Below are positions 51,175 to 63,739 of a stretch of DNA of 64,000 nucleotides, piece by piece (position 1 is the stretch's first letter; every line of letters begins with the position of its first letter). Below the pieces are notes generated by a model. That model was not told the DNA's origin. It ran no database searches and was given only the letters and a program-made list of their open reading frames with translations. The stretch lies in the IMG/VR virus record IMGVR_UViG_3300042291_001557, positions 36,257 through 100,256 of that record. One strand, given 5' to 3'. A program made the translations under genes and the position numbers. The stretch is from a virus.

Positions 51175-51204
51175 AACTTAGTTCCACCTACGGACGACTT
51201 ACAA
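51175..51204 (-). promoter_or_regulatory. Cassette promoter 1
   Basis: TTGTAA gtcgtccgtaggtggaac TAAGTT. Confidence 0.85.
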
Positions 51205-51247
51205 GTTTCCCTGTCTGTCACCCGGTGGCGTATCGGCTGATAGGGAA

Positions 51248-51277
51248 AGATTAACCTTCCCTACGGACGACTTACAA
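51248..51277 (-). promoter_or_regulatory. Cassette promoter 2 (tandem with 1)
   Basis: TTGTAA gtcgtccgtagggaaggt TAATCT. Confidence 0.8.
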
Positions 51278-51281
51278 GCTT

Positions 51282-51785
51282 TTACTTGCTGGCCTCTCTA
51301 TCGGCCTTTGCATCACGGATTTCCCACAATCCCTTCTTAATCTTCCGGAAGGCCGGCGATTCCTGAATGAACTTCAAGGTAGTGGGATAGGAGAACCCGG
51401 AGATTTCTACGAGTTGCTCAGTGGTGTACTGCTCAAATATGTGAGCCTTTGACCAGTCGATGAAAGCGTCGTATTTATCAGAACGCTTCTCGGTCTTGGC
51501 CGTTACTTCTTCCATAGATTCGATTTCTATAGCGCAGTAGCCCCGTACCACTTCTATCAAAACTTCCGGATGAACAGAGTAAGAGGATAGGAACTTGGCA
51601 GGATTGCCGGAACTACCCATGCGTTGCCACACTTGCAGTGTGTACATAGCACGGAGCGTTTCACTAATACGAGAAACAGTTTCACTGGGGACACTGAAGG
51701 CGTTGCCGTATTCAGATACGGCATTGTCCCACATCTCTTTGTGGTTGCTCTTAATGAGTTCATCTGTAATGAATGGTGTTGTCAT
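51282..51785 (-). CDS. Hypothetical protein with C-terminal HTH-like segment
   Basis: Own promoter; YTTEQL.EI.GFSYPT..K.I.....F.K.KKG.WE. Confidence 0.7.
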   Translation of the reverse strand: MTTPFITDELIKSNHKEMWDNAVSEYGNAFSVPSETVSRISETLRAMYTLQVWQRMGSSGNPAKFLSSYSVHPEVLIEVVRGYCAIEIESMEEVTAKTEKRSDKYDAFIDWSKAHIFEQYTTEQLVEISGFSYPTTLKFIQESPAFRKIKKGLWEIRDAKADREASK

Positions 51786-51816
51786 TTGTTACTTCTTTCT
51801 AGTAGTTCTTGTTTGG

Positions 51817-51846
51817 ATTCTACCTGGCCCTACGGACGGCTTACAG
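51817..51846 (-). promoter_or_regulatory. Cassette promoter 3
   Basis: CTGTAA gccgtccgtagggccagg TAGAAT. Confidence 0.8.
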
Positions 51847-52086
51847 AATTTATTCGAATATTACATAATTCTCGAGGGGTGTGTCATAGTTTCTGGGGTC
51901 ATCCACCACCGTCAGTTAAATTCGGACTCTGAGTCAGGGCCTATTCGAGAAATATTCGGAAATTTGATTTTTTTACTGGGCCGGCCGCTGCTACGTAGTG
52001 AATTTTATTCACCGTCTAGACAATCACTTCGGCCCGAGCCCCGCCCTCTACCCGGGAACCGGGGCTCAGGAGAGGAAAAGTGCCGG

Positions 52087-52341
52087 TCACCTTTTCTTGT
52101 GGTAATCAATTGCCCGGGTATCCATCTTTCCATCTTCCAACCAGGCGTCGAACATCTCGTTGATGACCTGCAGTAGTCGACTTGATGAGATATTCCATTC
52201 AACTAGGTTCTCTGCGAACCTTCCGCTGGAGTAATCATCAAGAATTACTACCATTGCCTCAGCTCCCGTTGTTGCCAAGGTGTAATAGTTTTCCTCTAGG
52301 AGCCCCATTAATTCCTTTTTCTTGATTTTCTTTTCAAGCAT
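52087..52341 (-). CDS. Hypothetical protein
   Basis: Overlaps upstream gene, same strand. Confidence 0.6.
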   Translation of the reverse strand: MLEKKIKKKELMGLLEENYYTLATTGAEAMVVILDDYSSGRFAENLVEWNISSSRLLQVINEMFDAWLEDGKMDTRAIDYHKKR

Positions 52342-52576
52342 CTGGCTCTTCTTTCACTAGTTCTGCATATTCTAGAGCAGAATCCATAATCCACTGGTTG
52401 ACATCGTTACCAGCATTTTCCCACTCATCAAACTCCTTACAGACTAGAGCCCACCCTTCTTGGGTGAGTTCTAGCCCGTCCATGTTTTCGAACTGTGGTT
52501 TATCCCACCACAGAATGCACAGTTCTTCATCAGGGGAATAGCGACTTAGCATCTCGATGATTTGTTTGATAATCAC
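52334..52576 (-). CDS. Hypothetical protein (paralog of 54106..54366)
   Basis: PDEEL...W..K...W..V...F shared. Confidence 0.6.
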   Translation of the reverse strand: MIIKQIIEMLSRYSPDEELCILWWDKPQFENMDGLELTQEGWALVCKEFDEWENAGNDVNQWIMDSALEYAELVKEEPDA

Positions 52577-53190
52577 AACAACGACGCTTCTTTCAGGAAT
52601 TCACAGTATTGGGTAAAAATTGCGTCGCTTTGCGCTTCTTTCCATGCTTCGTACTTGTCAATGGACTCATAGTCGTCGTAATCAACTTCTCCCTCGTATT
52701 CGCATGGCTCATACATAGACTGAAAGACCGTGTCGCCTTTGAGGTACGCCTCAGTGCCTGCAAAGAAGCCAGCCTCTTCGTCATAGTCAAAGGTGAAGAG
52801 CAGTTCAGGAAAGAGCGTAGAGACCTTTAGGAAGCCTGCATCGGCTGGACCCCATGCAGTTTGGTAGCGCATGACAACTTCCCACGAGCCGTTAGCAAGT
52901 TGCATCGGGTGTCCGATGTCAGTGTCGCAATCGCCCCACTTGGTACCCCAATTATCGTATGACCAGTCATACCAATCCTTGTAGCCGTACTTGGCAGTGT
53001 TGGACTCTTGCTGTTTGCGATGTTCATCGGCTTTGTCGTCTCCGACATAGCCAGCAACTGTCTCGTGCAGTTCTGCAGGGCAAGGTACATAGGACTCGAG
53101 AATTCGGGAATCCTTGATTCCGTCAATGAATCGCTGTACTTCTGCTGGCGAGCCTTTTACGCTCAGTGTGGTTGATACCCAATTTGGCAT
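52573..53190 (-). CDS. YubB/DUF1281-like ferredoxin-fold protein
   Basis: MPNW..T.L...G, WYDW...NWGTKW, TAWGP, Y.EE..FF.G. Confidence 0.75.
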   Translation of the reverse strand: MPNWVSTTLSVKGSPAEVQRFIDGIKDSRILESYVPCPAELHETVAGYVGDDKADEHRKQQESNTAKYGYKDWYDWSYDNWGTKWGDCDTDIGHPMQLANGSWEVVMRYQTAWGPADAGFLKVSTLFPELLFTFDYDEEAGFFAGTEAYLKGDTVFQSMYEPCEYEGEVDYDDYESIDKYEAWKEAQSDAIFTQYCEFLKEASLL

Positions 53191-53224
53191 GCTGTGTTCT
53201 TTCTAGTAGTGGTGAACAATGTTT

Positions 53225-53254
53225 AGATTAGTTGGTCCTACGGATGGCTTACAA
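53225..53254 (-). promoter_or_regulatory. Cassette promoter 4
   Basis: TTGTAA gccatccgtaggaccaac TAATCT. Confidence 0.85.
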
Positions 53255-53255
53255 G

Positions 53256-53534
53256 TTAGATGAAAGCAACTTCTATTGCGATTTCATCCTGCATTCCACA
53301 CTTGTCATCATTGGCTTCAAGCCAATCCTGAATCTCGTCGGTGATTTCTTGCCAGCCCTTGTCCCAGAAGCCGTTGTTGTTGAGAAAGTCGTACAACTCG
53401 TTCGGGTCAGGCAACTCTCGGAACTCCACAGGGAACTTCTCATCAGGGATGGAGAAGTAGTCCCACTTGGCGTAGGTCGGACCTTCGGGGTACGAGACCT
53501 CGGTAAGGATTCTTATGTAGTGGTCAACGCTCAT
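53256..53534 (-). CDS. Acidic hypothetical protein
   Basis: ATGA overlap with upstream gene, GAGGAG SD. Confidence 0.6.
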   Translation of the reverse strand: MSVDHYIRILTEVSYPEGPTYAKWDYFSIPDEKFPVEFRELPDPNELYDFLNNNGFWDKGWQEITDEIQDWLEANDDKCGMQDEIAIEVAFI

Positions 53535-53719
53535 TCTGACTCCTCTGTTGTGATGTCCCATGGGTGTGTGTCCCATTCTGATTGACCGTCAAGGTCTAAT
53601 GACTTGAGTTGGTCGTTGTTGAACGAGTAGTAGATAGAGAGAGCCTCTTCTTCGGTCTCTGCCTCAATCTCATAGTCGTGGTTGATGGATTCTGTTACTC
53701 GGAGTGTAAATTTCTTCAT
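53531..53719 (-). CDS. Small acidic protein (leaderless)
   Basis: MKKF.L.V.E.....YEIEAETEEEA pattern; ATG 6 nt after -10. Confidence 0.65.
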   Translation of the reverse strand: MKKFTLRVTESINHDYEIEAETEEEALSIYYSFNNDQLKSLDLDGQSEWDTHPWDITTEESE

Positions 53720-53725
53720 GCCTTC

Positions 53726-53755
53726 ACCTTACTTTTACCTACGGGCGACTTACAA
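53726..53755 (-). promoter_or_regulatory. Cassette promoter 5
   Basis: TTGTAA gtcgcccgtaggtaaaag TAAGGT. Confidence 0.85.
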
Positions 53756-53849
53756 ATTGTCATCCACCACCGTTGAATAAAAAAGGGCTAGGGCTAAGTC
53801 GTAAATACAGAAAGCTGGATTTCTGACTAAACGCGCAGCGTGGTCAGAA

Positions 53850-54119
53850 TCACTCTTCGTGGTGAGGGGCGTCTTGAGCCCCGTCCCGGTTGGCCTGCAG
53901 ATATGTCGAATAGTTCATTTCGAACAATTGGTCAATTATTTCGGCCAGTTCGCCGCCGGACCGCCGGACGAATGGGTCCCATACCAAGATGCGCTTGTCC
54001 ACATACTCAACCAGTGTGGGGATATCCATGATGTCAACATCCGTTGGGTATGCAGAGAGCACGAACGAGACCGCATTTGTCATGAATGCTTTCTTTATTT
54101 CGTCTTCAGACCAAGGCAC
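53850..54119 (-). CDS. Hypothetical protein
   Basis: AGGAG SD; operon context. Confidence 0.55.
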   Translation of the reverse strand: MPWSEDEIKKAFMTNAVSFVLSAYPTDVDIMDIPTLVEYVDKRILVWDPFVRRSGGELAEIIDQLFEMNYSTYLQANRDGAQDAPHHEE

Positions 54120-54366
54120 CGAGTTTTTCTCCTACTAGTTTATAAATCTCTTGATGGACATCAGCCCATGAACTGGTTAGGGCATTAGCCCACTTTTCGT
54201 TCTCAAATATAGAGACTACATCATTCCACTCCATCGGAGCAAGCGTGTCATAGTCGCCATCGTCTCTGATTCCCAGCGGAAAGTCGTCTTTTGTGAACCA
54301 CACACAGACGAGCTCTTCGTCGGGGTCCATATCGGACATGTGTCTAGCAATGTCTTTTGCCTTCAT
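54106..54366 (-). CDS. Hypothetical protein (paralog of 52334..52576)
   Basis: TAATG coupling; PDEEL...W..K. Confidence 0.6.
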   Translation of the reverse strand: MKAKDIARHMSDMDPDEELVCVWFTKDDFPLGIRDDGDYDTLAPMEWNDVVSIFENEKWANALTSSWADVHQEIYKLVGEKLGALV

Positions 54367-54677
54367 TAGAAGACCTGGTCCACTGTGTAGTGCTTCATAC
54401 TAAGAACCCAAGCGAGAACATCGCTCTGCCAGCCTGAATAGGCTTTCAGTGGGAGGGTGACGTCACTACTATCGTGACCAACAATGTATGAAAGTGCCAT
54501 TGAATAGTTTCCACGAGGGTTGTAATGGAGTGTGTAATAGACCTGACCATTGTTGCCAGCGGTTGCTAGCAGTTGGTAGTGCTTTTGTGTCCTGTTCGCA
54601 TGAAAGCGGACTTCTAGTGGTGTGGAATCGCCAAAGTTTGCTAAGGCGTCCCAGTGGAGTTGATAATCGTTGCTCAT
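54366..54677 (-). CDS. Hypothetical protein (leaderless)
   Basis: ATG 54677 is 7 nt after -10. Confidence 0.6.
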   Translation of the reverse strand: MSNDYQLHWDALANFGDSTPLEVRFHANRTQKHYQLLATAGNNGQVYYTLHYNPRGNYSMALSYIVGHDSSDVTLPLKAYSGWQSDVLAWVLSMKHYTVDQVF

Positions 54678-54684
54678 GTGGTCC

Positions 54685-54714
54685 ATCTTATTTCACCCTA
54701 CGTGCGGCTTACAA
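54685..54714 (-). promoter_or_regulatory. Cassette promoter 6
   Basis: TTGTAA gccgcacgtagggtgaaa TAAGAT. Confidence 0.85.
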
Positions 54715-54743
54715 GTTCCAGAGGACCCGTACCGGGGCTCGGC

Positions 54744-54773
54744 AAAGAGAAAGGGCAGGATTTCTCCTGCCCT
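54744..54773 (-). terminator. Intrinsic terminator
   Basis: AGGGCAGGA-4 nt-TCCTGCCCT hairpin followed by TTCTCTTT on minus. Confidence 0.7.
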
Positions 54774-54808
54774 GACCTTCGGTGTTGGGGGCTTGCGCCC
54801 CCTCAACC

Positions 54809-55231
54809 TCATTTGATAAAGCGAGCCACGCCCTTGTAGGTGCTTGTGTTGATAGTTTCCTCGTCAGTCATTTTCAGGACTGCGATAGCGTTTTCCAGTT
54901 CCTCAATGTCTGATTTGAGTGACCAGTCGGCAGAGGAGATTTCAGGCTCTTTTGGTGACTTCACAGAAGCAGGGAACTCAACGGTGATTTCGTATTTGTT
55001 GTGTTCCTCGTTGTAACGGAAGTTGTGAGCCTTACTGACGGAAGTTACTTTTCCTTTGCCTGAACGAAACATCTCGGCAAGAGTGTCACGAAAGTCTGAT
55101 ACAGCCTTTTCGTGGTCTTTCCGAGCCTTTTCGTTACTGGCTACTTCTTTCTGACGCTCTGCGAGAGCCTTTGATAATGCGTCAATCACTTTCTTAGTGC
55201 TGACCTTTACGCTTATTGGTTTTTGTGCCAT
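54809..55231 (-). CDS. Lys-rich coiled-coil hypothetical protein
   Basis: Start MAQKP after ACTAGAAA leader. Confidence 0.65.
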   Translation of the reverse strand: MAQKPISVKVSTKKVIDALSKALAERQKEVASNEKARKDHEKAVSDFRDTLAEMFRSGKGKVTSVSKAHNFRYNEEHNKYEITVEFPASVKSPKEPEISSADWSLKSDIEELENAIAVLKMTDEETINTSTYKGVARFIK

Positions 55232-55271
55232 TTCCCTATTTCTTTCTAGTAGTGGTGGGTTGGTAATTACC

Positions 55272-55301
55272 ACCTTAGTTTGCCCTACGGAGGGCTTACA
55301 A
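55272..55301 (-). promoter_or_regulatory. Cassette promoter 7
   Basis: TTGTAA gccctccgtagggcaaac TAAGGT. Confidence 0.85.
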
Positions 55302-55338
55302 GTTTGGTCGGGGGCTCAGGCGAGCCCCGCCCCGGGAG

Positions 55339-55542
55339 CTAGCCGGCAACCTCTTCCATTGTGTCTTGGTTGTAAATCGAGTTACATCGCCCACACACAT
55401 AGTGGAGACCATCCCATTCGTCGGGTGTTGGTTCAACAATTGTTCCGTCTTTCAAGCATGTCTCAAATCCGTCTAGGTGTGGGTTGTTCCCACAATCACA
55501 GACGAACCAATCAAAGGTGCTTTCTTTCAAGTTCAGAGCCAC
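55339..55542 (-). CDS. Small Cys-rich protein
   Basis: CDCGN.P..DGF..C...G...EP....W....YVC.RC. Confidence 0.65.
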   Translation of the reverse strand: MALNLKESTFDWFVCDCGNNPHLDGFETCLKDGTIVEPTPDEWDGLHYVCGRCNSIYNQDTMEEVAG

Positions 55543-55545
55543 GAA

Positions 55546-56013
55546 TTACCACGAACTCTGATAGGCGAAAGTCCACTCATCGGAAATCTTGGAAAGAGCG
55601 TTGTCAATAATTTCCACGGTGGATTCCAAGTCCTTGTAATACCATTCGTCATAGTCGGTGCTACCAAAGAAGAAGCCCGATGATGTCGGAAGGTGTTCGC
55701 TAGCGAGAGCATGGTTACCTAGAACCATCTTGCAAATAGTGCGCAGTTCTTCCAGTTTCTCAATGGGGACATAAGCCTCACGACAATCGTCATTACCGTC
55801 TTGACAGTTCTGCACGAACCAGTCATGAATGGCGTTCGCCTTTCTCCAGTAGCCAATCTTCACTTGACATTGGATAGAGGGAGTGTCTTTCTCCATGAAG
55901 TTAGTAACTCCAATTGCGTTAGCAACCGTGTGAAACCGTTTGTTCATTTCTTCCCCTCTCCATTCCATAGGTGAGAGGTAATTTTTTGCGTATAAGTATT
56001 GGTCTAATCCCAT
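55546..56013 (-). CDS. Conserved phage protein (MGLDQY...YWRKANAIH.WF type)
   Basis: MGLDQYL, YWRKANAIHDWF, LPT..GFFFG...YD.WY, YQSSW; ATG 7 nt after -10. Confidence 0.75.
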   Translation of the reverse strand: MGLDQYLYAKNYLSPMEWRGEEMNKRFHTVANAIGVTNFMEKDTPSIQCQVKIGYWRKANAIHDWFVQNCQDGNDDCREAYVPIEKLEELRTICKMVLGNHALASEHLPTSSGFFFGSTDYDEWYYKDLESTVEIIDNALSKISDEWTFAYQSSW

Positions 56014-56020
56014 GTCTGCC

Positions 56021-56050
56021 ACCTTACTAGTGCCTACGGACGGCTTACAA
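56021..56050 (-). promoter_or_regulatory. Cassette promoter 8
   Basis: TTGTAA gccgtccgtaggcactag TAAGGT. Confidence 0.85.
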
Positions 56051-56175
56051 ATTCTCTTCCACCACCGTCAGATAAGGGAGAGCCCTCATGGCCGGCTATC
56101 GCGTGCGTGGATAGATTTATCCGTTTTCTTGCGATACTTTCCCAGCTCAGATTCGAGTCGGGGCTCAGGGGCCGA

Positions 56176-56424
56176 TTAGAAGCCGGCACGCCGAGAGTCT
56201 CTTGCCAACCTAAGACGGTCTGTCTCACCAAGTCCGCCCCAGACTCCAAAGTTCAGTGCGTTGTCAGTTGCGTACTGCAGGCAGTCGGCAGAGACAGGGC
56301 AAGTCGAGCAAACTTTCTTGGCTTGCTTGAGTTCCGTATTTGACGAAGGGAAAAACACAGACTTATCCATGTCTTTACAGTTTGCCTGCTCAACCCAATT
56401 ACGTTCGTACAGTGCCATACTCAT
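56176..56424 (-). CDS. whiB: WhiB family transcriptional regulator (second copy)
   Basis: W.EQANC...D..VFFP, AK.VC..CPV..DCL.YA, GVWGG..E..R. Confidence 0.92.
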   Translation of the reverse strand: MSMALYERNWVEQANCKDMDKSVFFPSSNTELKQAKKVCSTCPVSADCLQYATDNALNFGVWGGLGETDRLRLARDSRRAGF

Positions 56425-56849
56425 TAGTAGAGCCCCAATTCTTCACGCTCATCGTCCGAGACGGTGCGCAAGGTGCTTGCGCTACCCATTGCATCGTGGT
56501 GACTGAGGGAATACTCAACACGGTCACTAAATACCTTGTAGGTCATACGCCAGTCACTGCGGACTGTCATGCCTTCAATTAGGTCAGCGACATTCTTGGC
56601 GTGAAAATACCCAGAGACATTGCGATTCCATAGTCTCAAGTCCTCAACCTTCCACCAGTTGGTCTCATTGGAGTCACGAAGTTCCTCGGTAATCATCGCA
56701 AAGTCCTCAACAGCGAAGTCCCAACAGTCTCCGTAGCAGGTAGAACCGTACTCGGTGTCAATTGACATTGTTTCGCCGTCTTCCTCGTAGGTGAGGCAGG
56801 TGCATGAATTGGTAATTTCGCCAGTGGCGATAGGTGTATCTAGTTCCAT
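56424..56849 (-). CDS. Hypothetical protein (leaderless)
   Basis: ATG 7 nt after -10; SHHD motif. Confidence 0.65.
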   Translation of the reverse strand: MELDTPIATGEITNSCTCLTYEEDGETMSIDTEYGSTCYGDCWDFAVEDFAMITEELRDSNETNWWKVEDLRLWNRNVSGYFHAKNVADLIEGMTVRSDWRMTYKVFSDRVEYSLSHHDAMGSASTLRTVSDDEREELGLY

Positions 56850-56854
56850 GTCTT

Positions 56855-57091
56855 TCACCCTACTTGCTCATACGGACGGCTTACAAATTGGTCAAGCGTG
56901 GCGGAGCCCCGGGGGCTTATCTCGCCACGCTTCATTAGTTCTTCGTGAGCAAGGTCAGCAATGGCAGTTGACAGGTCGGTGTCGTCAGTCTCGTAATACA
57001 TTCCAGTAACTGCCTTGTACAGGTCGGTAGTGGGGAGAGTTGGCACTCTCCCCATCCATACCGACTTATAGAAACGGTAGTAATTGTTCAT
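56855..57091 (-). CDS. Hypothetical protein
   Basis: TAATG coupling; C-terminus reads through promoter 9. Confidence 0.5.
   Translation of the reverse strand: MNNYYRFYKSVWMGRVPTLPTTDLYKAVTGMYYETDDTDLSTAIADLAHEELMKRGEISPRGSATLDQFVSRPYEQVG
56857..56886 (-). promoter_or_regulatory. Cassette promoter 9
   Basis: TTGTAA gccgtccgtatgagcaag TAGGGT. Confidence 0.75.
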
Positions 57092-57561
57092 TACTTTCCT
57101 GCGTCACCAAGTGAGAGCATTGCCTCGGCAAGTGAGCCAGTTGCGTTTCCTTCGTCAATGCTTACTTCGTCAGTATCTCCGAAACGGATAATGCTGGTCA
57201 TGGTGAGGTCACTACGGCGGATGAACGCACAAAGACGCACACGGCGACGCTGGGCGTGTTCCGAAGGGCGACCCTCAACCGAACCGTCAGCATTGAGTGG
57301 GGCAGCCCATCCAGAAGTGACTACGGCAAGAATGTCAGAAGAACGAACAGAGAACGGTGTCTCGGCAATCGCTTCGTCAATCAGTTCGTAAACATCAGGA
57401 TTAGAGAGAACAGGCTCAACCGTCACTCCGTCATTCTCGGCACGGACAACAAGTAGGTGAGCCTCGCTCATGTACAGGCTGTCTTGTTCGTTGGTGAACG
57501 CACCCAAGAAGTCATGAACAAAGAGTTCCGCCTCGGTTGCGATATTGGTAAGTGTTGTCAT
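57091..57561 (-). CDS. Hypothetical protein (paralog of 59458..59889)
   Basis: DVY.L.D, T.GWAAPLN.DG....PS.H..RRRV.L, G.A.G.LA.AM; AAAGGGA SD. Confidence 0.7.
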   Translation of the reverse strand: MTTLTNIATEAELFVHDFLGAFTNEQDSLYMSEAHLLVVRAENDGVTVEPVLSNPDVYELIDEAIAETPFSVRSSDILAVVTSGWAAPLNADGSVEGRPSEHAQRRRVRLCAFIRRSDLTMTSIIRFGDTDEVSIDEGNATGSLAEAMLSLGDAGK

Positions 57562-57597
57562 TAGTTTCCCTTTCATGGGGTCGTTGTTACAAATACC

Positions 57598-57627
57598 AAC
57601 TTACTTGCCCCTACGCGCGACCTACAA
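57598..57627 (-). promoter_or_regulatory. Cassette promoter 10
   Basis: TTGTAG gtcgcgcgtaggggcaag TAAGTT. Confidence 0.8.
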
Positions 57628-57693
57628 GTTTGCCCCGAGGCCCCGTTGTCCGGCACAGTAAGTACGAGTGCCGGGGCTCAAAAAGAAAAAGAG

Positions 57694-57831
57694 CTACTCA
57701 ACTTCTAATGGTTGAATGTTGTATCTACTGCGCATGAGTTCATAGCAGTCGTCACAGAGAAAACTATCGCTCTCTTCTATGCGTTCAGACAGGTAAGAAG
57801 GTTCATTGCCACACTTGCGGCAAGTACCCAC
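57694..57831 (-). CDS. 45-aa zinc-finger peptide (not in ORF track)
   Basis: GTG overlaps upstream TAG; CRKCG...LCDDCY. Confidence 0.55.
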   Translation of the reverse strand: MGTCRKCGNEPSYLSERIEESDSFLCDDCYELMRSRYNIQPLEVE

Positions 57832-58109
57832 TACTCACCCCCACGCTTCTTGTAGACGACTAGTGCTTCCTCTAGGGTTGAGCAGTAATCGCCTGTCTCG
57901 GCGTAGAAGCCCTCAGGGCGAGCCACGACATTCCAAATTGCGTACGGGTGAAACGCTGTCTCGTCTACGCAAACTGCTACCCAAGTGGCGTAGCAGTCAC
58001 CTACGACACGCTCATGGAGTTTCGTGTAGGCGATAACCATTCGCTGTGTGTCTCCGACCTTGTCGCCAATTCGGATTTCGCTGTATTCGTTTAGTGTGTT
58101 TGTTTCCAT
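57831..58109 (-). CDS. Hypothetical protein (leaderless)
   Basis: ATG 6 nt after -10; HPYA.W...G.Y..TLEEA...Y..R. Confidence 0.65.
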   Translation of the reverse strand: METNTLNEYSEIRIGDKVGDTQRMVIAYTKLHERVVGDCYATWVAVCVDETAFHPYAIWNVVARPEGFYAETGDYCSTLEEALVVYKKRGGE

Positions 58110-58115
58110 GTCTCC

Positions 58116-58145
58116 ACCTTACTGCTCCCTACGGAGCACTTACAA
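58116..58145 (-). promoter_or_regulatory. Cassette promoter 11
   Basis: TTGTAA gtgctccgtagggagcag TAAGGT. Confidence 0.85.
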
Positions 58146-58173
58146 GTCAGGGGTTTAGCCCCGGCTTCCTTCT

Positions 58174-58374
58174 CTACATACATACGTAGTCGAGAAAACC
58201 CGGGCCATTTCCTTCGGGGTCTGCCATTACAACAACAGTAGAACCATCGGTGAACTCAATCACTGTCGTTTCTACTGGGTCGCAATACCACATGAACTCT
58301 TTGATTTCATCGGCAGTGAGGCTCGTGACCTTTGCGATGGTCTTTCCGACAATGTCATCCACATAGTGTTTCAT
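58174..58374 (-). CDS. Small conserved phage protein
   Basis: VGKTI..V..LT..E.....W......VIEF.DG......DPEGNGPG.L. Confidence 0.65.
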   Translation of the reverse strand: MKHYVDDIVGKTIAKVTSLTADEIKEFMWYCDPVETTVIEFTDGSTVVVMADPEGNGPGFLDYVCM

Positions 58375-58721
58375 TACTGCTCCTTCAAGAAGTCTGAGAT
58401 TTCAGAGACAAGAGCCTTCTTGCCCTGCTTGTACGCTTCTTCAAGCATTGCGCTTTCAAGTTCCGCAATCCGAGCAAAACCCGCCACGAACAACATCATC
58501 ATCTCGTTTATTGCTTCTTTATCCTCATCGGTCATCTTCTTGACAGGTACTTCAAGGTCGTCAATGTCGTCAATCTCGTCAAGCGCATCAGGGTCAATGT
58601 TGTCAAGGTCAGGTCGGACTCCGCTACTGCGGAAAAGTATCAACGCTTCAATGATTACGGACAATTCCAACCTAGTGAACTCTCGGTCAAGTTGGGCGAT
58701 GGGTTCAATGTCGTCAAACAT
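58374..58721 (-). CDS. Acidic hypothetical protein
   Basis: TGATG coupling to upstream gene. Confidence 0.6.
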   Translation of the reverse strand: MFDDIEPIAQLDREFTRLELSVIIEALILFRSSGVRPDLDNIDPDALDEIDDIDDLEVPVKKMTDEDKEAINEMMMLFVAGFARIAELESAMLEEAYKQGKKALVSEISDFLKEQ

Positions 58722-59170
58722 CACTTGACCCCCAACCATGCGTTGAAGTCGTCATCTGTCATCGGCACAATCTTTGGAGTGAAGTCCATTTTGCTAATCA
58801 TGTTGGTGAGCATTGCTCGGTTCGCTTCTTCATTGTTCACAACTACCGTTCGTGCGAAGAAGTCAGCAGAGAAGAACAAGTCAGGCAGGTCGTAGTCGTA
58901 GCCGTCACTCTCGCCCTTGTCGTTGAGTGTGCCGACTAGCAACACATCTCCTGCGATGGGGTTGCCGTAGAGAACGGTAGCCGTGACATTGGGTTCAAGC
59001 CCAATGAGCAGACCCTCGTCATGGACATACATGGTCACTGCTCCGTGAGCCAATGAGACACAATCAAACCACCCACCGATTAGGTCGTTGATGACCGTGT
59101 GTGCGTTCTCCTTGGGGAGAATAATGGTGCGTGGTTCGCCTGTCGCTGGAATGAAAAGTGCTTTCGTCAT
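58721..59170 (-). CDS. DUF3846-like protein (leaderless)
   Basis: LIGGWFD.V....MYV.DEG....LEPN..AT......I.GDV.L.G. Confidence 0.7.
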   Translation of the reverse strand: MTKALFIPATGEPRTIILPKENAHTVINDLIGGWFDCVSLAHGAVTMYVHDEGLLIGLEPNVTATVLYGNPIAGDVLLVGTLNDKGESDGYDYDLPDLFFSADFFARTVVVNNEEANRAMLTNMISKMDFTPKIVPMTDDDFNAWLGVK

Positions 59171-59176
59171 GAGAAC

Positions 59177-59206
59177 AATTTACATCAGCCTACGCACGAC
59201 TTACAA
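59177..59206 (-). promoter_or_regulatory. Cassette promoter 12
   Basis: TTGTAA gtcgtgcgtaggctgatg TAAATT. Confidence 0.85.
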
Positions 59207-59457
59207 ATTAGCCTCATCCACCACCGTCACTAAAAAACCGTTGCCCTTCAGCCCTGTCACCTCAAAGAAAAACGGAATAAACGCATTAGTAATAGTTGTA
59301 CTGTGCAACTATCGGAACAGGGGTAGCCCCGCACCCCTGTCAGCCCACCGGGGCTCAGCTCAGATAATTCTGAATAGTAGGTCTAGGAGATACCAAAAGA
59401 TGGTGACTGCGCTCACCGTGACGAGCGAGAGTAACAAGATTTCTAGCGTTGTGCGTT

Positions 59458-59889
59458 TCATACGAACAGCCTAGACCGAAGCCAGCAGTCTGCCATTGCA
59501 TCTGCGAGCGCACCCGAAGCAGAGCCCGGGTCGGTAACGATTTCTTCCTCGTCTGTGAAAGCGAGAGCCGAGCCAGTACTTTCGGCAGTAATTGTCGTAA
59601 TGAGAGAGACACGCCTACGCTCTGGGTGGTCAGACGGTGCGCTATCTATGTCACCATCTTCGTTGAGTGGGGCTGCCCACCCTGTCGTGTGGATAGACAT
59701 ACCTACGAAGTTCTCAAAGTTGTAGGAAGCGTCAAGCAGGTCGTACACATCTAACGCCCAAGCAATTTTTACAAACTGCTCTTGTTCCGTGACTCCGTAG
59801 AGTTCTGCTCTTTTTTTATTGAAGCAGTCTGGGTCGTTGTCTAATGCGAATTGGAGTTGGTCGTGGGCGAGGAGTTCTGCTGATTTCAT
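59458..59889 (-). CDS. Hypothetical protein (paralog of 57091..57561; leaderless)
   Basis: ATG 59889 is 6 nt after -10; GWAAPLN.DG motif. Confidence 0.7.
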   Translation of the reverse strand: MKSAELLAHDQLQFALDNDPDCFNKKRAELYGVTEQEQFVKIAWALDVYDLLDASYNFENFVGMSIHTTGWAAPLNEDGDIDSAPSDHPERRRVSLITTITAESTGSALAFTDEEEIVTDPGSASGALADAMADCWLRSRLFV

Positions 59890-59895
59890 AACCCC

Positions 59896-59925
59896 AGAGT
59901 ACTTCACCCTACGGGTGGCATACAA
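59896..59925 (-). promoter_or_regulatory. Cassette promoter 13
   Basis: TTGTAT gccacccgtagggtgaag TACTCT. Confidence 0.75.
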
Positions 59926-59996
59926 GTTTCTAAACTTGCGAAACTTAGCCCCGTTCCCCTTCCTCGTTGTGATTCCTTGACTTTTTTTGTGACCCA

Positions 59997-60239
59997 TCAG
60001 ATTCCTTCCAACGCCATTGCTGCGCCTCGGAGAGTGTGGGCCCGTTCGGCTGCTTTGAGCAGTTGTACCGCTTGCTGAGCAAGGTAGGTGGCTGTGAACT
60101 CATTGACCTGCGGGTCGAAACTCGCTAAGGACCGCTTGATGTCCTCGTAGGTCGCTTGCGCTCCTAGTTGGGCTTCGTGTGCCAGTTGGTTCAGGTAGTC
60201 GGATGTTGTCTTGGGTTGCGTGGTCGCTGTTGTTTCCAT
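59997..60239 (-). CDS. Small helical protein (leaderless)
   Basis: ATG 60239 is 6 nt after -10. Confidence 0.65.
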   Translation of the reverse strand: METTATTQPKTTSDYLNQLAHEAQLGAQATYEDIKRSLASFDPQVNEFTATYLAQQAVQLLKAAERAHTLRGAAMALEGI

Positions 60240-60245
60240 ACACAC

Positions 60246-60275
60246 AACCTATCAAACCCTACGAACGACTTACAA
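60246..60275 (-). promoter_or_regulatory. Cassette promoter 14
   Basis: TTGTAA gtcgttcgtagggtttga TAGGTT. Confidence 0.85.
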
Positions 60276-60281
60276 CCCCAA

Positions 60282-60297
60282 TGTTTCACGTGAAACA
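60282..60297. promoter_or_regulatory. parS: parS-type palindrome TGTTTCACGTGAAACA
   Basis: Exact match to the canonical bacterial chromosomal parS consensus; palindrome extends to 20 bp (60280-60299); intergenic. Confidence 0.8.
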
Positions 60298-60328
60298 TTC
60301 TGTACCGGCCACTCGGGGCTCAGGGACG

Positions 60329-60368
60329 AAAAACCCCACTCGCCTGTCGTGTCCGAGGGCGAGTGGGG
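60329..60368 (-). terminator. Terminator-like hairpin after KTSC gene 1
   Basis: 11-bp stem CCCCACTCGCC/GGCGAGTGGGG, 13-nt loop, TTTTT on minus. Confidence 0.7.
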
Positions 60369-60382
60369 AATCCGTTGGGGTC

Positions 60383-60679
60383 TTAGTTCTTGGTGAACTC
60401 GTAGTGAGGCTTGATGTGTTCGTTCACGAACTTACCGAAACTCTCGGCAACCATCAGGTTGAATGCCACAAAGGCAGGAACGCCTTGGTAGTAATACTTT
60501 GCCCCACCTTTGTAGGTGATGACCATTACTGATTCGTCAGTGAGGTAGTGAGCCTCGGTGATGGCTGATGATTCTGCTGGCAGGAAGATAACGCTTCCAA
60601 ACCTGCTGATGTGGAATGTACCCTTGCCCGAAGGAAGTGGGTTATTGACTGTTGTTTCAAATGTCGCTGTTGTGTTCAT
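60383..60679 (-). CDS. KTSC domain protein 1 (leaderless)
   Basis: SSAI....Y......ITYKGG..Y.Y.GVP......L..AESFGKFVN.HIKP.Y. Confidence 0.8.
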   Translation of the reverse strand: MNTTATFETTVNNPLPSGKGTFHISRFGSVIFLPAESSAITEAHYLTDESVMVITYKGGAKYYYQGVPAFVAFNLMVAESFGKFVNEHIKPHYEFTKN

Positions 60680-60685
60680 GTCTCC

Positions 60686-60715
60686 ACCTTATCCCAACCT
60701 ACGGAAGGCTTACAA
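60686..60715 (-). promoter_or_regulatory. Cassette promoter 15
   Basis: TTGTAA gccttccgtaggttggga TAAGGT. Confidence 0.85.
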
Positions 60716-60791
60716 ATCAGGAAACCCTTACTGGCGAGCCCCGGCCCCCCAGTAAAAGGGCCACCAGCATTGCTGCCAGTGGCCCCAGTGG

Positions 60792-60968
60792 TTAGTCGTT
60801 CTGGTACTTGTCGTCTTCTTCGATGAACTCATTCATCTTTACAACCAGTTCCTCTGCGTAGGGGCGTTCCCCTGTGTAGAAGGTCTGGGGGTCATCGTAG
60901 GCCCTGTAGGTGGCTGCCTCGTAGGCCTCCAGTAGCAGGGTGTATGGGATTGTCACTGTTTTGCTCAT
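60792..60968 (-). CDS. 58-aa hypothetical protein (not in ORF track; leaderless)
   Basis: ATG 6 nt after -10; MSKTVTIPYTLLLEAYEAATYRAYDDPQ...; GGGCCAC/GTGGCCC hairpin plus TTTT downstream. Confidence 0.65.
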   Translation of the reverse strand: MSKTVTIPYTLLLEAYEAATYRAYDDPQTFYTGERPYAEELVVKMNEFIEEDDKYQND

Positions 60969-60974
60969 ACGGAC

Positions 60975-61004
60975 ATCTTACCCCAGACTCCGGAGGGCTT
61001 ACAA
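60975..61004 (-). promoter_or_regulatory. Cassette promoter 16
   Basis: TTGTAA gccctccggagtctgggg TAAGAT. Confidence 0.8.
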
Positions 61005-61080
61005 GCTCGGTTTGTAGCCCCGTACGTATGTTCGTACCGTTGCTTGTTGATACGGACTCCCGGGGCTCGGTAGCCCAAAG

Positions 61081-61115
61081 CCCCACCAACCTGTCGTGTC
61101 CGAGGGTTGGTGGGG
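61081..61115 (-). terminator. Hairpin after KTSC gene 2
   Basis: 11-bp stem CCCCACCAACC/GGTTGGTGGGG with the same 13-nt loop as 60334-60368. Confidence 0.6.
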
Positions 61116-61131
61116 TCTCCGTGGAGGAGGG

Positions 61132-61422
61132 TTAGGAACCTTGCCAGAACTCGTAGTTCGGCTTGATGTGGGTGTTGATGAACTTCCCGAAACTTTCGGT
61201 AACCAGCAAGTGGAACACCACGGTGGTAGGAACTTCACGGTAGTAGTAGGTCTTTCCACCCGTGTAGGTGACCGAGAGAGTTTCGTCTTGGTATTGAGCC
61301 ATCTCAATTGCTGATGACTCAGGGTAGATAATTAGCGCACCGTTTTTCAGAACGCTGAATTTTCCGTTTCCTGCTGGGAGTTGTGTTTTGTGTGTGTGGG
61401 GGAATGTCGCTGTTGATGTCAT
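61132..61422 (-). CDS. KTSC domain protein 2 (leaderless)
   Basis: SSAI..A.Y..ETL.VTY.GG..Y.Y..VP......L...ESFGKFIN.HIKP.Y. Confidence 0.8.
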   Translation of the reverse strand: MTSTATFPHTHKTQLPAGNGKFSVLKNGALIIYPESSAIEMAQYQDETLSVTYTGGKTYYYREVPTTVVFHLLVTESFGKFINTHIKPNYEFWQGS

Positions 61423-61428
61423 ACCCAA

Positions 61429-61458
61429 ACTTTACCACCCCCTACGGAGGGCTTACAA
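61429..61458 (-). promoter_or_regulatory. Cassette promoter 17
   Basis: TTGTAA gccctccgtagggggtgg TAAAGT. Confidence 0.85.
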
Positions 61459-61500
61459 ACCTGCCCCTATCACAGCGGGGCTGTAGGGGCAGGCCGGAAG

Positions 61501-61530
61501 TTGTAGGCCGTGCGTAGTATTTGATAAAGT
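61501..61530 (+). promoter_or_regulatory. Cassette promoter 18 (only plus-strand copy)
   Basis: TTGTAG gccgtgcgtagtatttga TAAAGT. Confidence 0.75.
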
Positions 61531-61536
61531 GGACTT

Positions 61537-61725
61537 ATCGGCAAAGGACACCGAGTGGAAACCAAAGACTGAGGCAACTCGGCGACTGGGAGTGCCACAA
61601 ATATGCAGGCAAGCCCTATCTGTCGGATTGGTTCACGACCGGAAACCTCCCTCATCTCTCTGAGGGTCAATGGTGAATCACAGAGAACTAGAACCCTAGC
61701 CCTCAGCAGGCTGGGGTTCTTTTTT
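61537..61725 (+). ncRNA. Candidate approx. 190-nt structured non-coding RNA
   Basis: Bounded by promoter 18 and an intrinsic terminator; no start codon at the expected TSS; several stems seen by eye. Confidence 0.55.
61691..61725 (+). terminator. Intrinsic terminator
   Basis: GAACCCTAGCC-7 nt-GGCTGGGGTTC then TTTTTT. Confidence 0.8.
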
Positions 61726-61748
61726 GCCACCGGAGCCCCGGCACGGGT

Positions 61749-61787
61749 AAAAGAAAAAGCCACCCGAAGGTGACTCTTTCTTTCTTT
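61749..61787 (-). terminator. Intrinsic terminator (possibly bidirectional)
   Basis: AGTCACC-TTCG-GGTGGCT then TTTTCTTTT on minus. Confidence 0.75.
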
Positions 61788-61851
61788 GCTCAACCAGTAC
61801 AGCGACTAACTGGGAGCAAGAACTTTCTCGCTGTCGCTGTTCTACGAATTG

Positions 61852-62031
61852 TTATCCGTAGTGTTTGCTCACCCATTCAGGTGAATTGGTATCTTCTTCT
61901 TCGTAAGTGAAGAAGGCGATATTTTTTCTAAGCCATTGAACCGTGGTGTATGCGCCGACTGTGAATATTCCCACGCCTGCGCACTTGACCAAGAACCAAG
62001 TGACGATAATAAATGCTTTTGCTGTTTCCAT
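61852..62031 (-). CDS. 59-aa membrane protein (not in ORF track; leaderless)
   Basis: ATG 6 nt after -10; METAKAFIIVTWFLVKCAGVGIFTVGAYTTVQWLRK... Confidence 0.65.
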   Translation of the reverse strand: METAKAFIIVTWFLVKCAGVGIFTVGAYTTVQWLRKNIAFFTYEEEDTNSPEWVSKHYG

Positions 62032-62037
62032 GTCTTT

Positions 62038-62067
62038 ACCTTAGTTCAGCCTACGAACGGCTTACAA
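62038..62067 (-). promoter_or_regulatory. Cassette promoter 19
   Basis: TTGTAA gccgttcgtaggctgaac TAAGGT. Confidence 0.85.
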
Positions 62068-62338
62068 GTTTCCGTTCGTCTACTTGCGTGTAGAAGGGAA
62101 CAAGTGGCTCTCTGTCCGTAGGTTGTGGGTAGTTGTTGTTGAAGTAGTTGGTAGCGAACTCGCCCTCGTGGAGAGTGACCTCAGGGGTATCCTGTGTCAT
62201 GTCCACGATGAGTAAAGCGTCTGCTTCCTTCATGTAAGCCTGCCCACCGTTGAAATGGTAAAGCCTTCCTTCTTGTGTTGCTGTGTCTATGACCTGAGCC
62301 CACTCGGTGTGGGTGGTCGCTGTGTGTGTTGTTTTCAT
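62051..62338 (-). CDS. Hypothetical protein (leaderless)
   Basis: ATG 6 nt after -10. Confidence 0.65.
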   Translation of the reverse strand: MKTTHTATTHTEWAQVIDTATQEGRLYHFNGGQAYMKEADALLIVDMTQDTPEVTLHEGEFATNYFNNNYPQPTDREPLVPFYTQVDERKLVSRS

Positions 62339-62344
62339 ACCTTC

Positions 62345-62374
62345 AACTTAGCCGAGACTACGGGCGACTTACAA
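62345..62374 (-). promoter_or_regulatory. Cassette promoter 20
   Basis: TTGTAA gtcgcccgtagtctcggc TAAGTT. Confidence 0.85.
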
Positions 62375-62409
62375 ATTTGCCCCAATGGAGAGCGGGGCTC
62401 ATTTGGGGC

Positions 62410-62616
62410 AAAAAGAAAGACCTACCGCCCCACCTCCGACACTAGGGCTAGCACCCACTTAAACTAGAGCAGTAATCGCGCGTAGAGGACGGATGGACTG
62501 TGGCGGATGCGTGATGGTCGTACGCCCATCAGAGGCTTGCTGTCCAGAGCCTTATCCTGCGGAGGGACTGGTGCGGTTAAGTTGTATCGGAGGGGAGGCG
62601 GTAAGCCTCTCTCACA
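62410..62616 (-). ncRNA. Candidate approx. 205-nt structured non-coding RNA with 27-bp closing stem
   Basis: Promoter 21 upstream; 62611-62585 pairs with 62441-62415 at 26 of 27 positions including 5 G-U pairs valid only on minus; U-tract follows; only a 12-codon ORF at the TSS. Confidence 0.7.
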
Positions 62617-62622
62617 AAGACC

Positions 62623-62652
62623 AACTTACTACCCCCTACGGACGACCTACAA
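62623..62652 (-). promoter_or_regulatory. Cassette promoter 21
   Basis: TTGTAG gtcgtccgtagggggtag TAAGTT. Confidence 0.85.
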
Positions 62653-62688
62653 GTTGGCAAAGTAGCCCCGCAGCTCTATGCTTGCCGC

Positions 62689-62883
62689 ATGAGTTCAGAA
62701 GATTACACCAAAGATGATTTAGGTCGAGACTTGTTCTTGATGGTCAAGGCCGGACTACTTGATGTCTCCATGAGAGAAGATGGCGAGTGGGTCTATAACG
62801 TCAGTGAGTCTTCATTGCTGCTCTCGGAAGAAGAGAAGGCAGACATTATTAGCCGGCTGGACGATTACGACGACATCTATTAG
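62689..62883 (+). CDS. Small acidic protein (leaderless, divergent)
   Basis: TTGGCA-17-TATGCT then 6 nt to ATG; L..MVKAGLLDV..REDGEWVY. Confidence 0.6.
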   Translation: MSSEDYTKDDLGRDLFLMVKAGLLDVSMREDGEWVYNVSESSLLLSEEEKADIISRLDDYDDIY

Positions 62884-62906
62884 CCGGTCGGGGCTCAGGG
62901 GTGTTG

Positions 62907-63149
62907 TTACACTTCTTCCCCACAGGCAGGACACCCACCAACTGCGTACATCTCTCCACAGTTACGGCAGGCGTTCGGGTGTTCTTCATAGAACGAGAAC
63001 GCTGGTTTCCGATAGACGATTCCGTTGATTTGGTATCCACCCTTTGAGGCGTTATACGCATAGTGAGTACCGAGCTTTTCAGCCCACTTGATTATTTCGT
63101 CAAGTTCTTCTTGTGTCACTTCTTCTATTGTCGCTGTTCTCTTTGGCAT
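62907..63149 (-). CDS. Small protein with C-terminal Cys4 finger (leaderless)
   Basis: CRNCG......CPACG; ATG 63149 is 6 nt after -10. Confidence 0.65.
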   Translation of the reverse strand: MPKRTATIEEVTQEELDEIIKWAEKLGTHYAYNASKGGYQINGIVYRKPAFSFYEEHPNACRNCGEMYAVGGCPACGEEV

Positions 63150-63155
63150 ACCCAT

Positions 63156-63185
63156 ACCTTACTTCACCCTACGCACGGCTAACAA
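63156..63185 (-). promoter_or_regulatory. Cassette promoter 22
   Basis: TTGTTA gccgtgcgtagggtgaag TAAGGT. Confidence 0.8.
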
Positions 63186-63231
63186 ATCAGTGGCAAGCCC
63201 CGGCCTTCCACTGATTCCGGAGCGTGTCGTG

Positions 63232-63459
63232 TTAGTCGTCCTTTCTTTCTTCGTTCATCATCTTCAGGTGACGACTCATTTGTTCCGATAGTTCGTCTTC
63301 GTTATCGACGTACTCACCGTCTCCAAGATAAGCAGAGACCCACTTACCTGTCTCTTCGTCAAAGCAGGTTCCTTCAGTAAGAGATTCCTCTTCTTGTTCG
63401 GTGTCCCACTCCCAAGAGTTGGTTGCTGCGTCAAATGAAATAATAAAGTAGTGCTTCAT
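63232..63459 (-). CDS. Acidic hypothetical protein (leaderless)
   Basis: ATG 63459 is 7 nt after -10. Confidence 0.65.
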   Translation of the reverse strand: MKHYFIISFDAATNSWEWDTEQEEESLTEGTCFDEETGKWVSAYLGDGEYVDNEDELSEQMSRHLKMMNEERKDD

Positions 63460-63466
63460 ACGCCCC

Positions 63467-63496
63467 ACCTTACTTTGGACTACGCACGACCTACAA
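63467..63496 (-). promoter_or_regulatory. Cassette promoter 23
   Basis: TTGTAG gtcgtgcgtagtccaaag TAAGGT. Confidence 0.8.
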
Positions 63497-63522
63497 GCCA
63501 TACCTAGCCCCGTCGTACCCGG

Positions 63523-63567
63523 TAGAAAGTATCCGGACACTGGGGGAAGCGTCCGGATACTTTTCTA
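63523..63567 (-). terminator. Long inverted repeat after 44-aa gene
   Basis: TAGAAAGTATCCGGAC ... GTCCGGATACTTTTCTA. Confidence 0.6.
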
Positions 63568-63568
63568 G

Positions 63569-63703
63569 CTACCGTGAGTAACGGAAGCGTAGATAGCGAA
63601 GGTGTGCCTTCGCCTGAATGAGACGGAAGTAGGTGTAACCCTCGTTCTGTCCGGTCTTGATGATGAATGGATTACGCATATGTTTCCCTTTCGCTGTTTC
63701 CAT
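63569..63703 (-). CDS. 44-aa basic peptide (not in ORF track; leaderless)
   Basis: ATG 6 nt after -10; METAKGKHMRNPFIIKTGQNEGYTYFRLIQAKAHLRYLRFRYSR. Confidence 0.5.
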   Translation of the reverse strand: METAKGKHMRNPFIIKTGQNEGYTYFRLIQAKAHLRYLRFRYSR

Positions 63704-63709
63704 GAACAC

Positions 63710-63739
63710 ACCTTATCTCAACCTCCGGACGGCTAACAA
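63710..63739 (-). promoter_or_regulatory. Cassette promoter 24
   Basis: TTGTTA gccgtccggaggttgaga TAAGGT. Confidence 0.75.

Follow-up and report, generated by a model that had tools for sequence, protein, structure and literature searches.

The window analysed here, which comprises the last 64 kb (64,000 nucleotides) of a 100,256-nt IMG/VR contig from lake water that is estimated to be 63% complete, carries on its minus strand what is very probably a member of a new family of structured non-coding RNAs of freshwater actinophages, absent from Rfam 15. The explanation that we find best, and on which we are evenly divided, is that of a stand-alone gene for a stable, structured early RNA of ~205 nt, with a putative role in trans as a decoy or scaffold for proteins. 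The initial annotation had proposed a non-coding RNA candidate of this size, and its location, the promoter in front of it and the U-tract behind it were all recovered in our analysis, on the minus strand (Table 1).

Table 1. Coordinates of the RNA locus in the window, of its divergent neighbour and of the RNA copies found in IMG/VR.
Feature	Position or locus	Strand	Remarks
Non-coding RNA, ~205 nt	62410..62615	-	From putative start GUG to end of U-tract; both ends predicted
Putative early cassette promoter of the RNA	62623..62652	-	-35 TTGTAG and conserved spacer box 62652-62636; -10-like TAAGTT 62628-62623
Closing stem, 5′ arm	62584..62613	-	Pairs with 62413-62442
Closing stem, 3′ arm	62413..62442	-	Pairs with 62584-62613
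Junction helix 3, 5′ strand ACUUAA	62577..62582	-	Partner UUAAGU 62457-62462
Small 3′ hairpin of three-way junction, GGGU-GCUA-GCCC	62445..62456	-	
Invariant core helix, 5′ strand AGGAU-AA-GG	62550..62558	-	Partner CCGUCCU 62486-62492
Invariant core helix, 3′ strand CCGUCCU	62486..62492	-	
Distal module	62499..62546	-	Helix 7, C-rich internal loop, terminal hairpin
Second hairpin	62379..62409	-	Directly after U-tract; loop has AGCCCCGC; read from the sequence
Divergent neighbour	62654..62883	+	Promoter TTGGCA-17-TATGCT 62654-62682; leaderless gene for 64-aa acidic protein 62689-62883
RNA copy in IMG/VR	L098		G051
RNA copies in IMG/VR	L102, L103a		G052 (complete 148-kb genome with terminal repeats), G053
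Second, divergent paralogues	L106:292-524, L103:2705-2937 (L103b)		G052 and G053, respectively; 77 bits; 1.6 kb downstream of the first
RNA copy in IMG/VR	L105		G054; 35 bits
RNA copy in IMG/VR	L128		G055; 94 bits

The virion genes of the source contig resemble those of T4-like cyanomyoviruses, with a 914-aa structural protein showing 45-47% identity to Synechococcus phages and up to 68% to uncultured lake phages. The window also contains two WhiB-family genes (56206-56397 on the minus strand and 43491-43682 on the plus strand) scoring above the Pfam cut-off, which point to an actinobacterial host though the virion genes look T4-like or cyanophage-like. In the freshwater phage literature WhiB serves as a marker of actinobacterial hosts, and since it is encoded in all six of the six RNA-bearing records, we take the host of these phages to be an actinobacterium. 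Phages of the abundant freshwater actinobacteria are nearly all uncultured.

Like the genes of the window's last 13 kb, the RNA unit lies on the minus strand, and it is preceded by the cassette motif TTGTAGGTCGTCCGTAG (62652-62636). About 24 near-identical minus-strand copies of this cassette are spread over 51188-63739 (32 motif matches versus 12.9 ± 3.5 expected), following the pattern TTGTAAG-spacer-TANNNT with, in the other copies, an ATG located 6-8 nt after TANNNT. This arrangement corresponds to the sigma-A promoter layout for leaderless mRNAs that is common in Actinobacteria. In front of the RNA, a GUG (62615-62613) is located 7 nt after TAAGTT, corresponding in position to the start ATG of the other cassettes. 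Because the ATG of the 24 cassettes has the same spacing, we infer that the RNA starts at ~62615, and by analogy with the other copies the cassette at 62652-62623 presumably acts as its early promoter. The homologous RNAs described below are preceded by the form of the cassette that belongs to their lineage; the kind of promoter differs in the L128 copy, which has TTGGAA-17-TAATGT instead. Within the array, four cassettes in 51188-55301 are not leaderless and have long leaders with a common CCACUACUAGAAAGAA ~8-10 nt before the ATG. In addition, the motif CGGGGCT occurs 10-11 nt upstream of the -35 TTGT in many cassettes, both in the window (51188-63739) and in L086, L098, L102 and L103.

At the other end of the unit, the closing stem of the RNA is followed by a U-tract (62419-62409), and a U-rich tail 3′ of the 3′ arm was present in 8 out of 8 homologues. 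The 3′ arm and the U-tract likely constitute an intrinsic terminator. A hairpin equivalent to the second hairpin of Table 1 follows the RNA in the homologues for which downstream sequence is available (the L105 copy stops at the locus edge), its loop containing GCGGGGCU or the complementary sequence. The hairpin at 62379-62409 may serve as a back-up for termination or protect the 3′ end. The motif (A)GCGGGGCU or its complement, as found in the intergenic hairpin loop after each RNA copy, occurs in either orientation relative to transcription; it and CGGGGCT may be regulator sites or terminator-loop motifs.

Folding of the minus-strand RNA yielded an energy of -96.9 kcal/mol (z = -2.7), equalled by none of 200 shuffles, while the plus strand gave z = -0.05. 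Of the 29 pairs in the closing stem, 23 are Watson-Crick and 6 are G-U, with a single C-U mismatch; the end-to-end stem of ~27 nt with five G-U pairs that had been proposed earlier was essentially right. Next to the closing stem lies a junction with one unpaired base on its 5′ side, and further along the arm the core helix contains a U-G pair and a bulge of two A residues. It is succeeded by the distal helix UGGAC/GUCCA (62546-62542 with 62498-62494), the C-rich strands of the distal internal loop (62541-62532 and 62511-62499) and the terminal hairpin (62531-62512). As to the internal pairings suggested in the initial annotation, the hairpin UGAUGG/CCAUCA is real and is compensated in L086 (UAAUGG/CCAUUA). 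The pairing ACUUAA/UUAAGU likewise exists and covaries, but it is nested instead of crossing. The hairpin AGGCU/AGCCU had to be abandoned, as its GG belongs to the invariant helix with the CC of CCGUCCU, and AGCCU is absent in other subtypes. Finally, the pseudoknot proposed for GCACC/GGUGC displayed no covariation and, with 71.8% of cells paired, did no better than shuffles.

None of the 4227 Rfam models identified a family on the locus at gathering thresholds, and a cmscan of 62300-62750 (451 nt) with E up to 10 returned just two chance matches (Pab19 and EBv-sisRNA-1). Five homologue loci searched against Rfam with E up to 1 gave no match either. ARAGORN detected no tRNA or tmRNA, in agreement with the lack of such signatures reported earlier, and no tRNA is located near the RNA.

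A covariance model built from the window's sequence alone (R1) scored six distinct homologous sequences at 35-223 bits, derived from five other WhiB-encoding phage contigs (G051-G055) and one lake metagenome contig (L086). The latter, from the JGI metagenomes, was reached via homologues of the divergent 64-aa neighbour and scored 222 bits, after which conserved words of the window and L086 pair were used to find the further copies in IMG/VR. As sampled, the family comprises 8 distinct sequences in 3-4 subtypes. The G052 and G053 versions of the second paralogue differ from each other within the distal repeats. Three further loci (L104, L129 and L130) were rejected as chance motif matches, and a weak model match at 57516-57615 of the window turned out to be just shared promoter and leader; the source genome holds one copy of the RNA.

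Searches of IMG/VR with the neighbouring 95-aa and 82-aa proteins, a 21-mer of the stem and an 18-mer of the promoter returned no match, nor did blastn against a cultured-phage collection. Moreover, a motif scan of 185,579 species genomes produced 16 chance matches, none of which scored with the model. Among 50 IMG/VR relatives picked via the 914-aa virion protein, the RNA was absent by blastn, and it was also absent from all 33 of those searched with the covariance model; the cassette promoter motif was absent in all five relatives tested. Four out of five near-complete (92-100%) T4-like lake phages encode WhiB, yet lack the RNA, suggesting that only some of these phages carry the RNA, as an accessory element. 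The 914-aa virion protein had no match in G052 and G053 (although long queries can miss weak matches), and the RNA may also be present in phages with a different virion module.

When folded singly, each homologue adopted the same plan, namely a closing stem of ~29 bp whose 1x1 mismatch never changes position, a three-way junction formed with helix 3 and a small 3′ hairpin, and one long arm. Along this arm the invariant helix is followed by UGGAC/GUCCA (UUGUC/GACAA in type B), an internal loop with 10-13 nt per side and a short terminal hairpin. The copy in the window has the ~29-bp stem with its mismatch, the junction with the 3′ hairpin, GGAUAAGGCUC and CCGUCCUC, and the U-rich tail that characterize the family.

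Covariation among the metagenomic and phage homologues was extensive. In the model-fitted alignment 94.5% of the cells were paired, and double-sided changes affected 39 of the 78 pairs, versus 17.1 ± 2.8 in shuffled alignments (none of 500 reaching the observed count) and 4-8 in slid controls, it being understood that these counts are somewhat inflated, as the model used to fit the alignment was itself built from the window's sequence. Changes in the closing stem are visible in an ordinary MAFFT alignment as well (UA to CG in L098, and AU/GU to CG/GC in type B). RNAalifold's own structure for a nine-row alignment kept 61 pairs, 36 of them compensated, and dropped a spurious promoter-leader helix. 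Per helix, the closing stem underwent double-sided change in 15 of its 29 pairs, with 97.5% of the cells paired in the homologues, and the 3′ hairpin did so in 3 of 4 pairs with all (100%) of its cells paired (e.g. GGGGU-GACG-ACCUC in type B and GAGAG-GACG-CUCUC in L105). The partners of helix 3 covary in L098 (CCGA../..UCGG), L103b (ACAUAAG/CUUAUG) and L105 (CCUAG/CUAGG), helix 7 covaries in type B, and the terminal hairpin carries a compensated change in L086. The invariant core helix is the best-conserved part of the RNA family: GGAUAAGGCUC and CCGUCCUC are identical across all homologues, and the U that follows differs in L128 only.

Over all helices, the homologues present 58 G-U cells versus 4 A-C cells, indicating that the fold exists on the transcribed strand only; this in turn excludes a palindrome in double-stranded DNA as well as a plus-strand RNA. 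The earlier argument that the G-U pairs of the closing stem point to selection on RNA is thereby upheld. With the homologues, the covariation and the G-U excess taken together, the proposal of a new phage non-coding RNA, under selection as RNA and equipped with a predicted promoter and terminator of its own, is borne out.

The unpaired bases have a peculiar composition, with 36-42% C and 4-13% G in every member of the family. The distal loop of types B and C and of L105 is built from a ~14-nt direct repeat (GCGAYASUCCCUCC), one copy on each strand; the copies differ at one triplet, AGU versus ACU, and these triplets, which are swapped in L105, can pair with each other. Such pairing would tentatively yield two loops in which GCGAY faces CCCUCC, arranged about a pseudo two-fold axis. 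In type A, including the window's copy, these repeats are degenerate (AGCAAGCCUC and CGCAUCCGCCACA) and contain no clean CCUCC.

In the mechanism that we propose, the host's sigma-A RNA polymerase would start at the G of the GUG (~62615), 7 nt after the TANNNT -10 box, and would end transcription at the RNA's own closing stem and U-tract (~62410). With both ends locked in the 29-bp stem, the RNA should be shielded from exonucleases and highly stable. It would build up early in infection and, acting in trans, bind proteins as a decoy or a scaffold. A specific protein site would be provided by the invariant bulged helix, and the pseudo-symmetric C-rich loops could offer a second, possibly dimeric contact. 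Protein binding is suggested because a bulged helix that never varies is typical of protein sites, and because of the pseudo two-fold repeats. Taking the RNA itself as real, we advance a decoy or scaffold role tentatively, with its chances falling just short of even. It has to be weighed against the observations that no gene consistently adjoins the RNA across contexts and that the accessible C-rich strands fit a base-pairing regulator equally well. The strong early promoter, the slow evolution, the movable cassette and the paralogues point to RNA-based takeover or counter-defence, and structured phage RNAs of ~200 nt with this much covariation are uncommon. Should the target be RNA polymerase, the ribosome-binding step or a defence nuclease, the RNA would represent a new kind of phage weapon; with no such target, it would be one more orphan RNA motif.

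A base-pairing regulator could resemble the 6C sRNA (B11 in M. tuberculosis), in that pyrimidine-rich strands of the UCCCUCC type would pair, without a chaperone, with the G-rich ribosome binding sites of host mRNAs and stop their translation, while the leaderless early mRNAs of the phage would escape. We regard this as unlikely. At ~205 nt, the phage RNA has two to three times the length of 6C. Both come from Actinobacteria or their phages and expose C-rich, G-poor single strands on stable stems; the C runs are found in two hairpin loops in 6C versus the internal loops of a 205-nt rod in the phage RNA. In mycobacteria, the C-rich loops of 6C pair with G-rich ribosome binding sites and repress the targets, and overexpression arrests growth (PMC6486639). 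An actinobacterial host suits this reading, as do the C-rich and G-poor loops of all family members, the two GCGAYASUCCCUCC copies in the internal loops of types B and C and L105, and the fact that most early cassettes have their ATG at the inferred transcription start, without a Shine-Dalgarno sequence. However, the degenerate loop strands of type A lack a clean CCUCC, and it is the helices rather than the C-rich strands that are most conserved. Moreover, the late genes of the phage itself often have GGAGG-type sites that would be struck too, the RNA is no more complementary to the genome of its phage than expected by chance (45 ten-mers versus ~38), the Rfam 6C model gives no match, and the phage RNA is rod-like.

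Somewhat less probable still is that the RNA, produced early and abundantly, constitutes a device for translational takeover, in which strands resembling an anti-Shine-Dalgarno sequence would mask the G-rich ribosome binding sites of the host, and ribosomes would be diverted to the leaderless phage mRNAs. If true, the actinobacterial 6C mechanism would have an enlarged counterpart carried by a phage.

We consider it improbable that the RNA is a functional analogue of 6S or Ms1 RNA, withdrawing host RNA polymerase (the sigma-A holoenzyme or the core) from host and early promoters and so aiding the switch to later phage expression. The long closing stem, on which the initial annotation drew, is indeed a common trait, as are the size (~205 nt, against ~200 nt for 6S and Ms1) and the rod-like shape with internal loops. 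The strong early promoter and an actinobacterial host also fit, and acting as an abundant decoy would make sense for a phage RNA made early in a sigma-A host. The internal loop, with its 10-13 nt per side, might moreover be taken for a small bubble, and truncated 6S-1 RNAs with short arms are reported to work in vitro still, at ~10-fold lower affinity (PMC8876501). However, the hallmark of 6S RNA (RF00013), a large central bubble between two long irregular helices, is not shared by the phage RNA, which has a tight three-way junction and a single arm whose largest loop lies 6 bp from the terminal loop. This flank is too short to mimic a promoter duplex, the loop is probably subdivided by short pairs, and the junction by the closing stem, having one unpaired base on its 5′ side, provides no mimic of an open complex. 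In addition, no Rfam family scored on the locus (E up to 10) or on the other subtypes, 6S included.

Returning to the reading of a stable early RNA acting in trans, the nearest analogy, a functional one, is found in the cluster A mycobacteriophages. In L5, D29 and StarStuff, abundant and stable early non-coding RNAs of obscure role are made, and expressing the region is toxic to the host (PMC5712189). These RNAs similarly belong to actinophages, have no conserved ORF and are driven by a strong early promoter, but they stem from a ~500-bp region at the genome end of temperate siphoviruses, as opposed to a compact 205-nt unit of large lytic-type phages. A different kind of stable phage RNA is formed by RNAs C and D of phage T4, which are small, structured, located in the tRNA region among early/middle genes and cut from a tRNA precursor. 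In contrast, and as far as a comparison by description goes, the RNA in the window is flanked by a predicted promoter and terminator of its own, with no tRNA in its vicinity; in other phages, homologues of the neighbouring 64-aa gene do adjoin tRNA arrays.

The RNA appears to be under stronger constraint than its surroundings. Identity between the window's copy and L086, L098 and L103a was 88-91%, versus 68-71% (DNA) for the adjacent genes, so that the RNA evolves ~3x more slowly than the neighbouring genes. In the lake metagenome runs compared, all of which are DNA contigs, the block 62390-62636 was near-unchanged in contigs of four lake metagenomes, with flanks that differ or are replaced. 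One contig (run X19 record 26) had 2 differences in 245 nt, with neighbouring pieces differing by 8-19%, and the sole variant inside the RNA among those listed was at 62576, at loop position 40; there were 279 weaker differences besides. In run X13, contig joints at 62161/62390, 62636/62728 and 62888/63010 placed the RNA, with or without the 64-aa gene, between altered flanks. Furthermore, L098 has a type-A RNA in the slot that is held by a type-B RNA in G053 and by other sequence in the source genome. Every copy retains a promoter in front and, behind it, the U-rich tail and then the hairpin whose loop shows GCGGGGCU or the complementary sequence. From these comparisons of sequence, the RNA unit seems to behave as a self-contained expression cassette that is shuffled among the early cassettes, and not as a transposable repeat, because it is present as a single copy in the source genome.

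This mobility, with metagenome joints at the borders of the unit and differing gene neighbourhoods (L098 versus the window and L103), might together with the long terminal inverted repeat and the parS-like site near the RNA in some phages also suggest an element acting at the DNA level, such as a miniature inverted-repeat insertion, a replication origin, a protein-binding palindrome or an oversized terminator. We deem such an element very improbable. The pairing works on one strand, the interior of the RNA (junction, invariant helix and hairpins) is conserved and covaries beyond the ends, and a promoter before and a U-tract after it are kept in constant orientation. Moreover, besides the single copy in the source genome there was none in the species genomes scanned, and the flanks contain nothing resembling a target-site duplication. 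The miniature inverted repeat that the initial annotation had named as the outcome at odds with its proposal was thus not encountered.

The least probable alternative, bordering on the negligible, is that the structure is incidental to a leaderless small-protein gene starting at the 5′ GUG, or to a gene on the opposite strand. Leaderless translation in mycobacteria can indeed start at a 5′ GUG, 7 of the 8 members start with GUG exactly at the leaderless AUG position of the other cassettes, and an antisense ORF opening with M(L/R)DGRTPIRGLL recurs within type A; however, the sense ORF varies in stop and frame (12 codons in the window and L086, 28 in L098 and L102, 31 in L128 and 46 in type B), reads GGAUAAGG in different frames, is as conserved after the stop codon of the window's copy as before it, and undergoes non-synonymous substitutions in its first codons that are each compensated in the 3′ arm of the stem, while types B and C lack the antisense ORF, which was recorded neither by gene callers nor in the protein collection.

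Some further elements of the cassette region deserve mention. The non-coding stretch 61470-61750 contains the sole plus-strand cassette promoter (61501-61517) and corresponds to the slot of the type-B RNA in G053, to which it is not homologous; read depth in run X14 peaks over 61562-61723, and the stretch may be common to many phages. A parS-like palindrome (TGTTTCACGTGAAACA) is located at 60280-60299, just upstream of a cassette promoter, and the same site directly follows the type-B RNA in G052 and G053 (L103 ~2970-3040). The RNA of L105 lies ~1 kb from a gene for a ParA-like protein of 196 aa.

The gene diverging from the RNA, which is the sole plus-strand gene in the cassette array, has a promoter that according to a promoter scan ends 6 nt before the ATG, and its -35 stands back to back with that of the RNA promoter. 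Its 64-aa product matches no Pfam family and belongs to a protein family of 22 clusters. The AlphaFold model (pLDDT 84) comprises a helix, a beta-hairpin and further helices, with weak matches to winged-helix proteins (E 0.2-0.9). The gene adjoins the RNA in 3 of 7 contexts, 11 of the 12 loci with a homologue are without the RNA, and the protein is probably not an obligate partner of the RNA. In 7 of 12 metagenome loci, a tRNA array precedes the homologue of the 64-aa gene on the same strand and is separated from its start by 4-27 nt.
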